Notes: generated from the letters alone by a model not told the origin. DNA of 64,000 bases from a virus (IMGVR_UViG_3300033145_001087:47431-111430), one strand, 5' to 3'; numbered from the stretch's first letter, positions 17,565 to 24,925 are shown. Numbers and translations: made by a program.

Positions 17565-17600
17565 CTCATTGAATTGAGTCTCACCGTATTGTATTACGAT
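17565..17600 (-). promoter_or_regulatory. tandem AUNCAA-loop hairpins in the leader of the repeat-protein gene
   Basis: CGUA[AUACAA]UACG (17598-17585) and CUCA[AUUCAA]UGAG (17578-17565); the second pairs part of the SD. Confidence 0.7.
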
Positions 17601-17605
17601 TAAAT

Positions 17606-20314
17606 TTAACTTACTACAAAAGCATTAATATCAAAATAACCACCAGATGTTGGACTTGTATAATCTACCCAACAAGATACATCTACACAAGAATCTGATG
17701 TTAATGTTCCGTGAAGTGTTTGATTGCTTGTAGTTAAAGTTGTTGCATCTACTACTGTATAATCATCATCACATTTTAAAGCAATATTCGTGATTGTTTC
17801 ATTCATATTCATATAAATACTTGTCCCAGTACCTGTTCCATTATTACAAATTCTATAAATTGCTTGCGAACTACCAGCATTTTGGTCATCTGGTTCACAA
17901 TCAGTTTGTGTTGGCGTACACCTAAATGTTAAATAGTTTGTGGTTACATCTCCCCAAATTGAGCCAGTCCAAATAGTAAAATTAGTATCTGGGTCACCTA
18001 CCTCTGCATCTGTATTATTTGTAATATTAACAGAATCAAAAAATAAAGTAGTTCCAATACCATAATTTCCATACATTGAATAATAAACATATATTCTAAA
18101 AGTATCGTCAGTATATATTCCATCTGTAGCATTATATACCTCTCCATTTACCGAGTATGATATAACATCATTATCGTGAAGTTCAAAAGTTGCATTCCAA
18201 CCAATAGTCGATACATTAGTTAATATATCTGGATGTTCAGGAAGAAGATAATAACAATCAATATCTCCTTCACCGGCGGGATGCGTATCACCATCATAAT
18301 ATGAATGGATGAGAAAATGGGAACCTGTTGTATTAATTGCATATACACTAAAATTTATTTTCCAACCACCAGGATTAGCTCCACAATTACTACCATATCC
18401 TGTTGCGTGTCCATGAACATGTTCCATTTCAACTTTTGTCCCATATTGTAATGTGGTAAAATTTGTAAGTCTTAAAACATCATCATTAAAAGCGTTATAT
18501 GATTGTAGAAAAATATGGTCTTCGCATCCTGGTGCAACGGTGCAAGTTCCACTACCATTAATATATCCACCTTTTAAATTATAATCATCATAAGCATAAG
18601 CACTAAAATTGTCTGTTTGAACATAAGTTTCATTCCAGGCATGTGTATATAAATTAAATTCATCCTTCCAAACATCGGTTATTGTTTGTTCTACATCATT
18701 AACACCATAATATCTAACATCAGAACCTTTATAAGTTTCTTCTGTCTCATTACTCCAAGAATGCCACAAATAACGGTAAGGTCCCGCTTTTGAAAAAATA
18801 TCACTAGCATTATACATCATAGCTGATAAATTGGAAGCTGTCTTGTTTGAATTGTTTATGTCTAATAACACCGTGCCATTGGTTATATTTACGGTCACAT
18901 TAAAATAACCAGTCCCGCTTGTGGTTAAATTATAACTATCGTCCCAATAATCTGAATATTCTGGTTTTGGAGGTCCCTCGACTGTGGTTGTGGTAATATT
19001 TACTACGGAACACCTATCAAACGTTCCAGTTGCATCATCGCAAATATATCCATAAGCCGTTAATGTTCCTTCATCCGTTTCCAAAGTTTCATATGTACAT
19101 CTTATTTGAAATCCATCATCTGAATAGGGACCCTTACAAAGTGTATCCGTATCTCCACCATCACAAACATCATCTTCACCAACTACAGAAGTAATACCTG
19201 CTGTTCTACATATTATTAAGGCAATAAGTTCGACGTTATCTTCATGTCCAAATGCTGAATAAGTTATATTTAATCCTGCTGTTTGTGGGTCTGGAGAATC
19301 TTCTAAATCTCCTGTCCAGGTTGGCGTGGATGGCGGGTCAACAATATAATCAAATTCTAAATAAGCATTATTATCATTATTTAAACTAACAACTTTAAGG
19401 TCAAAAGTATCATTAACACCGCTTAGATTAGTAAGATATTCTATATAAAGGGTTGGTTTGTAAATTATTGGAAAACTCATAATATAGGTTCCATTAGTTA
19501 AATATACTTCAACGATTGTCGTATTTCCACTTTGATTATTTCGGGGATAAATTGTTATATCTTGGGTAGAATTAAGTTCTTCCTCAAAAGTAACTCTTAT
19601 ATATTCATTATGATAAATAGGCTCCGTCCAGATATTATCTAATTCTGAGGTCTCATTATACACGTTCGAAATAAAACTTTTATTTTCGTCTAAATGTATC
19701 GCATCTGAAATAAATATTGGGTCGAACAATCTAACATTATAAACTTCATAATCGGAATTAATATCATACTGAGCTTTAAGGATACCACTTTTATAAATCC
19801 ACGCCCATCTATAATCAGGATGTAATTCAACTTTCATATTCAATCCAAATTCTAAAGATATTTTATCAGAAAGTTTATATGTATCTCCTTCATACGTTAG
19901 GTCTCTAACTTCATATCGTAAAAAATATTCTGATGCATTAAATACTTCAATCATATGAGAAATAGGAAATACCTCTACATCATCGAGAGTTCCATCAAAA
20001 AGATATGTTTCTTTTATAACAGGTCCTCTTATATAAGGTGTTAATTTTGTAATGGTTATAGTTTTATTTTCTTCATCAATACTTGTATTTATTTCGATTC
20101 CAGATAGACGACGGTTCATTTTAGAATTCCCATCAAAAATAGAAACATATTCTCTACCCGCTACTACCCATCTATTATTATCATTTTTAACATAGAATGT
20201 AGCTTTATCTGTATCAATCTTAAGTTTAACATTATCCATAGAAATATAAATTATACCAGTAGCTAGTAAAAGAAGTATTAATGTTCCAATAATATAATTT
20301 TTAGTATCTGTCAT
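17606..20314 (-). CDS. 902-aa membrane-anchored/secreted glycoprotein, paralog of 28..5094
   Basis: N-terminal TM (YIIGTLILLLLATGIIYI); shared ~200-aa domain ending YNVRLFDP; >30 sequons by eye; shared C-terminal domain (EPxxQ...WxDY). Confidence 0.7.
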   Translation of the reverse strand: MTDTKNYIIGTLILLLLATGIIYISMDNVKLKIDTDKATFYVKNDNNRWVVAGREYVSIFDGNSKMNRRLSGIEINTSIDEENKTITITKLTPYIRGPVIKETYLFDGTLDDVEVFPISHMIEVFNASEYFLRYEVRDLTYEGDTYKLSDKISLEFGLNMKVELHPDYRWAWIYKSGILKAQYDINSDYEVYNVRLFDPIFISDAIHLDENKSFISNVYNETSELDNIWTEPIYHNEYIRVTFEEELNSTQDITIYPRNNQSGNTTIVEVYLTNGTYIMSFPIIYKPTLYIEYLTNLSGVNDTFDLKVVSLNNDNNAYLEFDYIVDPPSTPTWTGDLEDSPDPQTAGLNITYSAFGHEDNVELIALIICRTAGITSVVGEDDVCDGGDTDTLCKGPYSDDGFQIRCTYETLETDEGTLTAYGYICDDATGTFDRCSVVNITTTTVEGPPKPEYSDYWDDSYNLTTSGTGYFNVTVNITNGTVLLDINNSNKTASNLSAMMYNASDIFSKAGPYRYLWHSWSNETEETYKGSDVRYYGVNDVEQTITDVWKDEFNLYTHAWNETYVQTDNFSAYAYDDYNLKGGYINGSGTCTVAPGCEDHIFLQSYNAFNDDVLRLTNFTTLQYGTKVEMEHVHGHATGYGSNCGANPGGWKINFSVYAINTTGSHFLIHSYYDGDTHPAGEGDIDCYYLLPEHPDILTNVSTIGWNATFELHDNDVISYSVNGEVYNATDGIYTDDTFRIYVYYSMYGNYGIGTTLFFDSVNITNNTDAEVGDPDTNFTIWTGSIWGDVTTNYLTFRCTPTQTDCEPDDQNAGSSQAIYRICNNGTGTGTSIYMNMNETITNIALKCDDDYTVVDATTLTTSNQTLHGTLTSDSCVDVSCWVDYTSPTSGGYFDINAFVVS

Positions 20315-20319
20315 TTTAT

Positions 20320-20361
20320 CCTATTGTATTAGGTATTATTTTTACATTGTATTGTAAAAAT
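20320..20361 (-). promoter_or_regulatory. tandem AUACAA-loop hairpins in the leader of the 902-aa gene
   Basis: AUUUUUACA[AUACAA]UGUAAAAAU (20361-20338) and CCUA[AUACAA]UAGG (20333-20320); the second pairs part of the SD AGGA. Confidence 0.7.
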
Positions 20362-20365
20362 CTTT

Positions 20366-23686: not shown

Positions 23687-24239
23687 TGTTCTCACCTATA
23701 TTATAATTAAATATATCTTTAAGAAAATTGTAATATTGCTCCCAAGTAATATATTCCATTTCTTGTATTTTAAATGAATCTGTCCATTGTAATACATCAT
23801 AAAAATGTTGTTTCTTTATTTCTTTTGGAATATGCTTAGTCCAATCTGTAATATTTACAATGCTCCATTTTGGAATAAAAGTTATTTTATTATCGTCAAT
23901 CATACAAAGCCATCTATGATGACAAAATCCGGCATAACTTTCATTACCCTTCCAAGTATCAACACCCTTCGTACATTCTGTTAATATACTAGGGACGATT
24001 ATTATACCCGCTTTACTAACACGCATCATTTCTTTACAGACAAAAAGTGGGTCTTTTATATCTTCTAATACATTACTACAATATGCTAAATCAAATTCCT
24101 TATCTTTAAAAGGCCATTTTTTACATATATTCTGTTGTGTATAATGTAATTTACAATCCTTTGGTTTCTCTATAATATCTATAATATGCGTAGCATCTTT
24201 TTTTGTATTAATTGCTCCTCCAACATCTAAAATTTTCAT
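23679..24239 (-). CDS. class I SAM-dependent methyltransferase
   Basis: KILDVGG, WPFKDKEFDLAYCSNVLEDI. Confidence 0.85.
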   Translation of the reverse strand: MKILDVGGAINTKKDATHIIDIIEKPKDCKLHYTQQNICKKWPFKDKEFDLAYCSNVLEDIKDPLFVCKEMMRVSKAGIIIVPSILTECTKGVDTWKGNESYAGFCHHRWLCMIDDNKITFIPKWSIVNITDWTKHIPKEIKKQHFYDVLQWTDSFKIQEMEYITWEQYYNFLKDIFNYNIGENNE

Positions 24240-24367
24240 ATTATTCTCACCTATATTCTAATATTTTTATTTTATAAGATATTCCATATATATCACCTTT
24301 TTTATTTATAGTAATATATATGTAATTTTCTTATTGAATGTTTTGGTTTGGTTTGACACCTGACGAA

Positions 24368-24880
24368 CTAAACTTCATCGTACTGAAGCCGAAATTGTTT
24401 GGTCTGTGTTGCCCCCGCACTAGCCGCAGACGTTATACTTGCTTGTATAACAATAAAGTCACTATATCCTGTAGCTGTTAGACTAGCAGAAAGACTTCCT
24501 GTAAAGCCAAGATTAGCCGCTCCTGGGTCTGCTGTAGGCATTACTACACTGGCTTTAGCATCCAAATTAGTTGTTGGTGTTGTAAAAGTTGTTGTTCCAC
24601 CATAAGTTGCTGTCGATGCTGAACATTTCAATGATTCTCCTGATACATAACCAGTTCCACTTGAACTCATCCAAAGTTGAAGATTTTCAATCCTTGTAAA
24701 TGTTCCACTCCAATATCCTCTAAACCATTTACTATATGAGTATGTTCCTGCTGTTATAGGATATGTACTTGGTGCTAGATTTGCTGAGTTATTACTACCC
24801 AAATTTAAATTTCCGGCTGTTATATCAGTCGTATCGCCGGCTGTTGCATTATATTCAATAAATGCGAATGTTGCTGCCAT
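24368..24880 (-). CDS. putative virion structural protein
   Basis: 170 aa, Ala/Thr/Gly/Ser-rich beta protein; first gene after the promoter at 24950. Confidence 0.55.
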   Translation of the reverse strand: MAATFAFIEYNATAGDTTDITAGNLNLGSNNSANLAPSTYPITAGTYSYSKWFRGYWSGTFTRIENLQLWMSSSGTGYVSGESLKCSASTATYGGTTTFTTPTTNLDAKASVVMPTADPGAANLGFTGSLSASLTATGYSDFIVIQASITSAASAGATQTKQFRLQYDEV

Positions 24881-24907
24881 TTTATTTCCCTCTATTTATT
24901 TTATTGT

Positions 24908-24925
24908 TGTTTATTGCATTAAACA
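24908..24925 (-). promoter_or_regulatory. AUGCAA-loop hairpin in 5' leader
   Basis: UGUUUA[AUGCAA]UAAACA just downstream of the predicted transcription start. Confidence 0.65.

Follow-up and report, generated by a model that had tools for sequence, protein, structure and literature searches.

The 64,000-nucleotide stretch IMGVR_UViG_3300033145_001087:47431-111430, here called the window and numbered from its first letter, is the structural arm of a tailed virus: it encodes the portal, an HK97-type capsid protein, the tape measure and a minor tail protein, and the genome to which it belongs comprises 111,430 base pairs (bp) with terminal repeats and a G+C content of 29.7%. On its minus strand lies a gene module that begins with the gene for a 170-amino-acid (aa) protein, p170 (24368..24880 (-)), a probable fibre subunit. 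The module continues with genes for a methyltransferase of 186 aa (23679-24239 (-)), an 819-aa fusion of the glycosyltransferase (GT) types GT2 and GT4 with a methyltransferase (21236-23695 (-)), twin paralogs of 153 and 128 aa with a LIYFRR motif (20366..21223 (-)), a membrane-anchored protein of 902 aa (17606..20314 (-)) and a repeat protein of about 1280 aa built from degenerate repeats of about 15 aa (13696..17565 (-)). Three leaders of this module contain five small hairpins, four of them arranged as two tandem pairs, in which a stem of changing sequence ends in an A-U pair and the hexaloop AUNCAA. These hairpins belong to a family of short RNA hairpins that has not been described before and that marks, within a single mobile accessory module, the leaders and the junctions between genes.

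All five hairpins are present on the minus strand, which is the messenger RNA (mRNA) strand, exactly where the earlier note on this DNA had placed them (loops are given in square brackets). W1, UGUUU-A[AUGCAA]U-AAACA (24925-24908 (-)), occupies the 5'-proximal part of the leader of the 170-aa gene, about 30 nucleotides (nt) past a TATA-like box and 27 nt ahead of the AUG; in nine related leaders, its orthologue is located between the same promoter motif and the Shine-Dalgarno (SD) sequence. The 902-aa gene is preceded by a tandem pair. The upstream partner W2a, AUUUUUAC-A[AUACAA]U-GUAAAAAU (20361-20338 (-)), has a 9-bp stem consisting of eight pairs and the closing A-U, folds with -5.8 kcal/mol (z = -4.8) and is the top match of our covariance model; an AUG-UAA start-stop is enclosed in it (20345-20340 (-)). 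The 3' arm of the downstream partner W2b, CCU-A[AUACAA]U-AGG (20333-20320 (-)), belongs to the SD sequence AGGA, which stands 5 nt ahead of the start codon (AUG) of the 902-aa gene. The second tandem pair stands in front of the repeat gene: W3a, CGU-A[AUACAA]U-ACG (17598-17585 (-)), can be extended to AUCGU/ACGGU with one G.U pair and then spans 17583..17600, and W3b, CUC-A[AUUCAA]U-GAG (17578-17565 (-)), continues with its 3' arm into GAGGGA, the likely SD sequence of the repeat protein if translation starts at the AUA at 17556. The reading frame of this protein, open from 17565, contains no ATG, GTG or TTG before 16833; the AUA at 17556 (-) is in frame and lies 5 nt past GAGGGA. The proposal that the downstream hairpin of each pair takes up part of the SD sequence therefore holds for AGG(A) of the 902-aa gene, and for GAG(GGA) only on condition that the AUA at 17556 is the start of the repeat gene. 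All five hairpins are local minimum-free-energy folds, with values from -2.6 to -5.8 kcal/mol.

The bare 8-mer AATNCAAT, from which our pairing script extended the stems outward, is not enriched: there are 33 copies in the window, and 37 are expected. Of the 55 copies found in the whole genome of 111,430 bp, only the five hairpins have at least three flanking Watson-Crick pairs, while each of the remaining copies has at most two. Dinucleotide shuffles of the genome (n = 300) yielded a mean of 1.63 such hairpins as compared to the five observed, and seven of the 300 shuffles reached five. The count, which the earlier note had wanted to be compared with shuffles, is thus only modestly unusual and by itself modest evidence. 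The case is strengthened by the restriction to the mRNA strand, the location in three leaders of one module, the two tandem pairs and the recurrence in related viruses. In agreement with the earlier note, in which the motif had not been recognised, no family of Rfam 15 matched the window at the gathering thresholds, and a search of positions 17400-25100 at E values up to 10 gave only chance eukaryotic families. A scan for transfer and transfer-messenger RNAs found none, and literature searches did not find the motif described.

Relatives were collected by capsid-based and p170-based scans, which gave about 90 related loci and four near-complete genomes; the p170 relatives came from an alignment-based scan, a query with the single p170 sequence having found none. 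The closest homologues, on Logan/ENA contigs, are 75-79% identical. In the closest relative, with a capsid protein that is 79% identical, the same promoter motif is followed in the orthologous leader by GGUU-A[AUACAA]U-AACU, and a tandem pair stands before the next gene, its first stem (UUUUUUUC/GAGAGAGA) requiring three U.G pairs. Nine more leaders of p170 homologues share conserved islands, i.e. the B recognition element (BRE) with the TATA box, the loop and the SD sequence, and the sequence between these islands is unrelated.

A census of every non-redundant AATNCAAT site in about 0.9 megabases of related viral DNA, performed without selection for stems and with G.U pairs allowed, showed where the hairpins occur: at least three flanking pairs were present at 41 of the 69 intergenic sense-strand sites (59%), as opposed to 9% of the coding-sense, 4% of the coding-antisense and 6% of the intergenic-antisense sites. 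Hairpins that were equally frequent in coding or antisense sequence had been named in the earlier note as evidence against a functional motif, and the observed difference (59% versus 4-9%) speaks clearly for one. The 41 non-redundant hairpins come from 30 records and have 23 distinct 3-bp stems. In 461 kilobases of p170-anchored loci, 57 such hairpins are located on the gene strand and only three on the opposite strand, and ATACAA is the top 6-nt loop among all hairpins of at least 4 bp, above homopolymers, with a closing pair that is mostly A-T.

The hairpins of the relatives precede the same gene families as in the window: those for p170, the anchor gene of the motif in these viruses, for the twin 128/153-aa proteins, for the fusion of glycosyltransferases and methyltransferase, which has its own hairpin, for the membrane-anchored 902/1688-aa proteins and for the repeat protein. 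In some relatives, a hairpin is also found before the gene for a protein of about 72 aa. Two relatives, G002 and G004, have the head and tail genes in common with our virus, lack the module and have no hairpins; a third, G003, possesses the module and has a hairpin before the repeat gene. The assignment of the motif to leaders within a single module of structural or surface genes, and its conservation before orthologous genes, are both supported by the relatives. A blind scan of IMG/VR for two copies of AATACAAT 9-17 nt apart gave mostly chance matches and four with stems, and a scan of the same database with one exact 14-mer gave chance matches only. One of the four stemmed matches (L231:51-830, IMG/VR 3300009538_000004) is a contig with 44% G+C that encodes a p170 homologue, and directly behind this gene come two GC-stemmed AAUACAAU hairpins (GCC/GGC and GGC/GCC), the second of which contains the AUG. 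The module and its motif are thus found in viruses whose base compositions differ widely. Moreover, tandem AAUACAAU hairpins stand before genes on three further viral contigs (L259:6166-6210, L310:2641-2675 and L320:4456-4495) with no p170 homologue in the fetched flank, so that the motif may extend beyond the module.

The pairing was studied in an alignment of 67 sites that had not been selected for stems, using a six-pair helix and 500 shuffles. In this alignment, 69.7% of the cells are paired as compared to 54.6% in the shuffles, and none of the 500 shuffles reaches the observed value; the covariation score is 0.477 versus 0.204. When the helix was slid along the alignment as a control, only 32-40% of the cells were paired. 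The three pairs beside the closing A-U are formed in 73-82% of the sites, each with five or six pair types, and among the inner pairs G.U or U.G (18) exceed A.C or C.A (7). This excess and the stem that depends on U.G pairs indicate that the structure has been selected on the sense RNA and not on duplex DNA. Together with the strand bias of 57 versus 3, the result of the shuffles (0/500) substantiates the claim of a strand-specific RNA-level motif with covarying stems. The consensus comprises at least three variable pairs, with mostly pyrimidines in the 5' arm and mostly purines in the 3' arm, the invariant closing A-U and the hexaloop AUNCAA. The covariance model R1 derived for it is too short for selectivity: it recovers three of the five window copies at E values of 0.005-0.07 and misses two copies with 3-bp stems.

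Two lines of evidence suggest an archaeal setting for the virus. First, the promoter-like element upstream of W1 (24950..24969 (-)), (C)AAAAGA-TTTATATA-GGAGAA, is composed of a BRE-like purine tract and an 8-bp TATA box. Archaeal promoters have a purine-rich BRE 5' of an 8-bp TATA box, and transcription starts about 22-27 nt downstream; from its form, the element at 24950 is probably such a promoter. It exists in six genome copies of the form (C)GAAAnn-TTTATATA-G(G/T)AGAAG, every one of them before a gene (in the window at 34392-34411(-), 24950-24969(-) and 12611-12630(-), in the genome at C1 13134, 21474 and 25311 (+)), and it is also found in relatives; it can likewise be written (C)GAAAnnTTTATATAG(G/T)AGAAG. 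Downstream of the three window copies there is, at variable distance, TAATAGTATA, which may be an initiator region. Second, the genome encodes a PCNA-like clamp (C1 31225-31377(+)) that matches PF00705 with 22 bits, above the Pfam cut-off, and in a control search the matches to PF00705 were restricted to archaea. In addition, there is a protein with a primase domain of the archaeo-eukaryotic primase (AEP)-TOTE type (C1 2693-3229(+), E = 6e-27); clamp and primase are replication components of the archaeo-eukaryotic type. Based on the BRE/TATA-like element and PCNA, the setting is probably archaeal rather than bacterial, and the lineage is probably one of uncultured tailed viruses of archaea. 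Pfam searches of the genome for a T7-like RNA polymerase, TFIIB/TFB and MCM found none of them; megablast and tblastn did not detect a relative among deposited phage and virus genomes, and a provirus search of GTDB genomes with the p170 alignment was negative as well.

The position of the hairpins with respect to the genes follows a few patterns. For 49 of 58 hairpins, a gene start is at most 90 nt away. In five hairpins with at least three pairs and in about seven weaker ones, all from relatives and none among the five window copies, the AUG consists of the AU of the loop together with the base that opens the 3' arm. In 15 hairpins, the start codon is 4-18 nt past the loop, and due to this distance the purine-rich 3' arm coincides with the SD region (GAGG, AGGA or GUGAU); the remainder lie 23-60 nt upstream of the start. 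The tandem pairs, found in at least eight records, are spaced by 16-27 nt and typically show the order of a stronger upstream hairpin, the SD sequence and a weaker hairpin with the AUG. W1-type hairpins begin about 5-30 nt past the predicted transcription start. About a dozen sites have the arrangement SD-(1-3 nt)-AAUACA-AUG with short stems or none. Hairpins of the form UUAC-A[AUACAA]U-GUGA are located inside the last codons of a twin gene (encoding ITIQC-E/D-stop), the variable N being a synonymous isoleucine position. A minimal start-stop open reading frame (ORF), AUG-UAA or AUG-UGA, is contained in three hairpins of relatives (L198:2420-2439, L204:2629-2644 and L210:1348-1363).

The leaders of the twin genes, which carry a hairpin in relatives, have an additional property: CAAUAGCA, which is the 3' half of the motif, has a second possible pairing partner in UGCUAUUG further downstream, and the two give an alternative helix of 8-10 bp (L153:10529-10575, L197:4609-4650, L198:1641-1680, L206:1499-1545 and others). 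RNAalifold favours this CAAUAGCA/UGCUAUUG helix, and there is one compensatory change, C-G to U-A in L206, in addition to wobble changes (G.U, U.G). As judged from these predicted foldings, the twin-gene leader may be a two-state RNA switch.

The invariant loop on a stem that is free to vary, the tandem sites, which enclose the SD sequence and the AUG or lie on either side of them, and the confinement to one regulon are the features from which we infer that a factor binds the hairpins and that translation is the step under control. On this reading, to which we give about an even chance, the hairpins would be a post-transcriptional operator, read by a protein, that gates the access of the ribosome to the genes of a single regulon. 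The translational operator put forward in the earlier note is borne out in its anatomy, i.e. the tandem arrangement and the overlap with the SD sequence and the start codon, and keeps the standing of a proposal as far as binding and repression are concerned. Most likely, a trans-acting reader would recognise the AUNCAA loop on the folded stem; this reader would probably be a protein, dimeric or cooperative and perhaps host-derived. The stronger upstream hairpin would serve as its entry site, the weaker downstream hairpin with the SD sequence or the AUG would be clamped shut, and ribosome access to the genes of the module would thereby be set jointly.

Several findings weigh against such an operator. 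The search for a reader among the module proteins, with Pfam domains and by gene profiling, found none: neither the CsrA domain (PF02599) nor the L7Ae domain (PF01248) was found in the virus genome, and profiling of the genes over five genomes gave no RNA-binding candidate. Many p170 orthologues, in tightly packed operons, lack any hairpin, which makes the hairpin optional or dispensable for this gene. The W1-type hairpins lie near the predicted 5' end and 25-35 nt from the SD sequence, a position that suits a role in stability or processing at least as well as translational repression. Finally, the stems are short and weak, and the covariance model cannot part the weakest members from background.

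Both candidates proposed earlier as binders, the 170-aa protein and the twin paralogs, find no support, as they are acidic to near-neutral and gave no match to an RNA-binding fold. The twin proteins are predicted to form a beta-sandwich, and their family is acidic to neutral (median isoelectric point (pI) 6.0); the p170 family is acidic (median pI 4.3), and p170 itself only weakly resembles pilins and TasA. The genes confined to hairpin-bearing relatives encode a protein similar to AEP primases and two proteins of unknown kind, and there is no RNA-binding protein among them. A search of the module for an arginine-rich mini-ORF found none that is conserved; one of 36 aa, located in the relative G003 between the genes for p170 and the twin proteins (L138:11630-11740(-)), is not conserved elsewhere. 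We also considered direct pairing of the loop with the helix 44 region of the 16S ribosomal RNA and rejected it: such a duplex would have the variable N at its centre, and the archaeal sequence would be mismatched by the most frequent variant of the loop.

Among the alternatives to an operator, a processing or stability element comes first. An endoribonuclease of host or virus might use the loop as its recognition site and cut the polycistronic RNA at the gene junctions, or the hairpin might cap the 5' end of the mRNA against 5'-to-3' decay; where the AUG ends the loop, cleavage could generate a leaderless mRNA. We regard this explanation as unlikely on the whole, and it best fits the 5'-proximal copies, which begin so close to the predicted transcription start. 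The internal hairpins are located exactly at gene junctions, nuclease sites likewise present a conserved single-stranded loop on a variable stem, and the element at 24950 is the only one of the BRE/TATA type in the module, so that the downstream genes must be on a long transcript. However, processing would require neither an SD sequence or AUG in the stem nor a ribosome-binding region between tandem loops, and no nuclease gene accompanies the module.

Alternatively, the motif could be a cis signal for the translation machinery of the host, read directly by the ribosome or by an initiation factor and needing no regulator of its own, AAUACA-AU(G) being a preferred spacer and start context and the upstream copies acting as standby sites or enhancers. 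The dozen or so sites in which SD sequence, AAUACA and AUG are directly combined with short stems or none would be explained in this way, and so would the ability of the module to move across viruses of 30-44% G+C without an identifiable reader gene. Most copies, however, are away from start codons, the stems covary although mere sequence context would not need them, and the other genes of the virus use ordinary SD sequences without the motif, and we consider this quite unlikely.

A site similar to nut, with a nascent hairpin that loads a factor on RNA polymerase for read-through of oligo-T terminators in the module, is very improbable. It would fit the position of the first hairpin just past the promoter and the T-run after the p170 gene in relatives, but many hairpins are located past the T-runs and overlap ribosome-binding regions, and no conserved arginine-rich or NusG-like partner is encoded in the module. 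The lambda boxB site for N is likewise a short conserved-loop hairpin that occurs just past the promoter and again inside operons; however, its pentaloop is GNRA-like and it works at the level of transcription elongation, whereas most copies of our motif overlap ribosome-binding regions. The hairpins also differ from intrinsic terminators, which have a G+C-rich stem and a U run: here, the stems are short or consist mainly of A and U, and what comes after them is a purine-rich sequence, an SD sequence or an AUG.

An element that acts at the level of DNA, be it a cruciform, a hairpin promoter or an operator bound by a dimeric protein, is largely refuted and scarcely credible, and so is a chance pattern: perfect inverted repeats do fold on both strands, and the count within the genome is only modestly significant, but a non-palindromic conserved centre with variable arms is the opposite of a DNA site for a dimer, the strand bias and the excess of G.U over A.C pairs point to RNA, transcripts starting at those hairpins that hold the SD sequence and the AUG would lack both, and the recurrence of the pattern in 30 records excludes chance. 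Hairpin promoters of the N4 type, which are extruded from the DNA upstream of early genes, have a stem of 5-7 bp and a 3-nt loop; in contrast, the hairpins described here have a 6-nt loop and a closing pair, belong to the virion-structural and presumably late region, include stems that depend on G.U pairs and can form on the sense strand only, and sometimes contain the AUG.

If the hairpins do act as translational operators, several known systems are close in design. The coat protein operators of MS2, Q-beta and PP7 are also small hairpins with a fixed loop and a variable stem, and they have the start codon inside, as do several of the relatives studied here. They differ in a bulged purine and a 4-nt ANYA loop, whereas our motif has no bulge and six loop nucleotides, AUNCAA, closed by A-U; moreover, they belong to RNA phages, and here there are many sites per genome in double-stranded DNA tailed viruses. 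The reader of the MS2-type operators is an abundant structural protein that binds as a dimer. No such coat-like reader was found in our case, and the models of p170 and the twin proteins, the only proteins folded, gave no match to the Levivirus coat fold. The targets of CsrA and RsmE share with our leaders the dual sites, an upstream hairpin with a weaker site at the SD sequence, and the control of many mRNAs in one regulon. CsrA sites, of which the upstream hairpin loop has the high affinity, are 10-63 nt apart and are bridged by the homodimer; the tandem pairs described here are 16-27 nt apart, the second hairpin holding the SD sequence or the AUG. However, CsrA and RsmA require GGA in the loop, which AUNCAA does not contain, and the host is probably an archaeon, a domain from which CsrA is not known.

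The operators of phage T4 likewise constitute a post-transcriptional regulon at ribosome-binding sites, and that for gp43 has a 5-bp stem with an 8-nt A/U-rich loop. They differ in sequence, their readers are known (the DNA polymerase and RegA, with no homologue indicated here), and the RegA sites are unstructured. The few known archaeal cases in which a protein controls translation by way of RNA, autoregulation by L7Ae with the K-turn and mRNA mimicry by ribosomal protein L1, also rely on a small structured leader element. The K-turn has tandem sheared G.A pairs and a 3-nt bulge, which our motif lacks, and none of the invariant loop positions is a G; in contrast to L7Ae and L1 control, the motif is viral and specific to one module. 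T-loops are U-N-N-R-A pentanucleotides with a reverse-Hoogsteen U.A pair. At the level of sequence, U-N-C-A-A in the loop matches this pattern, which may be a mere resemblance.

To our knowledge, almost nothing is known about post-transcriptional regulation in viruses of archaea, and we know of very few archaeal protein-RNA operators. The functional kind suggested here, the translational operator, is a familiar one; new are the RNA motif family and its occurrence in viruses with no known control of this type. It is a tentative and somewhat doubtful idea that the hairpins are the first post-transcriptional regulon described for archaeal viruses, in which a portable operator with an A-closed AUNCAA loop code would travel with a glycosylated-fibre module and be read by a new RNA-binding fold or by a component of host translation. 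The motif is compact and covarying, with dozens of natural variants, a clear module context and a testable tandem design around the ribosome-binding region, and the search for the reader reduces to an ordinary pull-down. It is also possible that a new orthogonal pair of hairpin and protein can be obtained for synthetic biology, and the motif is a practical marker for the fibre and glycosylation module in metagenomes.

Some observations concern the proteins of the module themselves. The p170 family has 251 homologues in metagenomes. The AlphaFold2 model of p170, with a predicted local distance difference test (pLDDT) score of 88, gave weak Foldseek matches to the TasA fibre (8aur) and to FimA, FimG and PapA (E values of 0.007-0.05), a pattern that would fit a virus-encoded fibre subunit of the donor-strand-exchange type, which the model weakly resembles. 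The beta-sandwich predicted for the twin protein (pLDDT 93) had no Foldseek match, and VIA returned only mutarotase and YidC-P1-like sandwiches with Z scores of at most 6.8; judging from the models, the twin proteins could be chaperones for the pilin-like subunit. In the 5' part of the repeat gene, a strong GGAAAGGGAG at 17531-17526 (-) is followed by an out-of-frame AUG-UAA start-stop, the stop of which overlaps an in-frame AUU.

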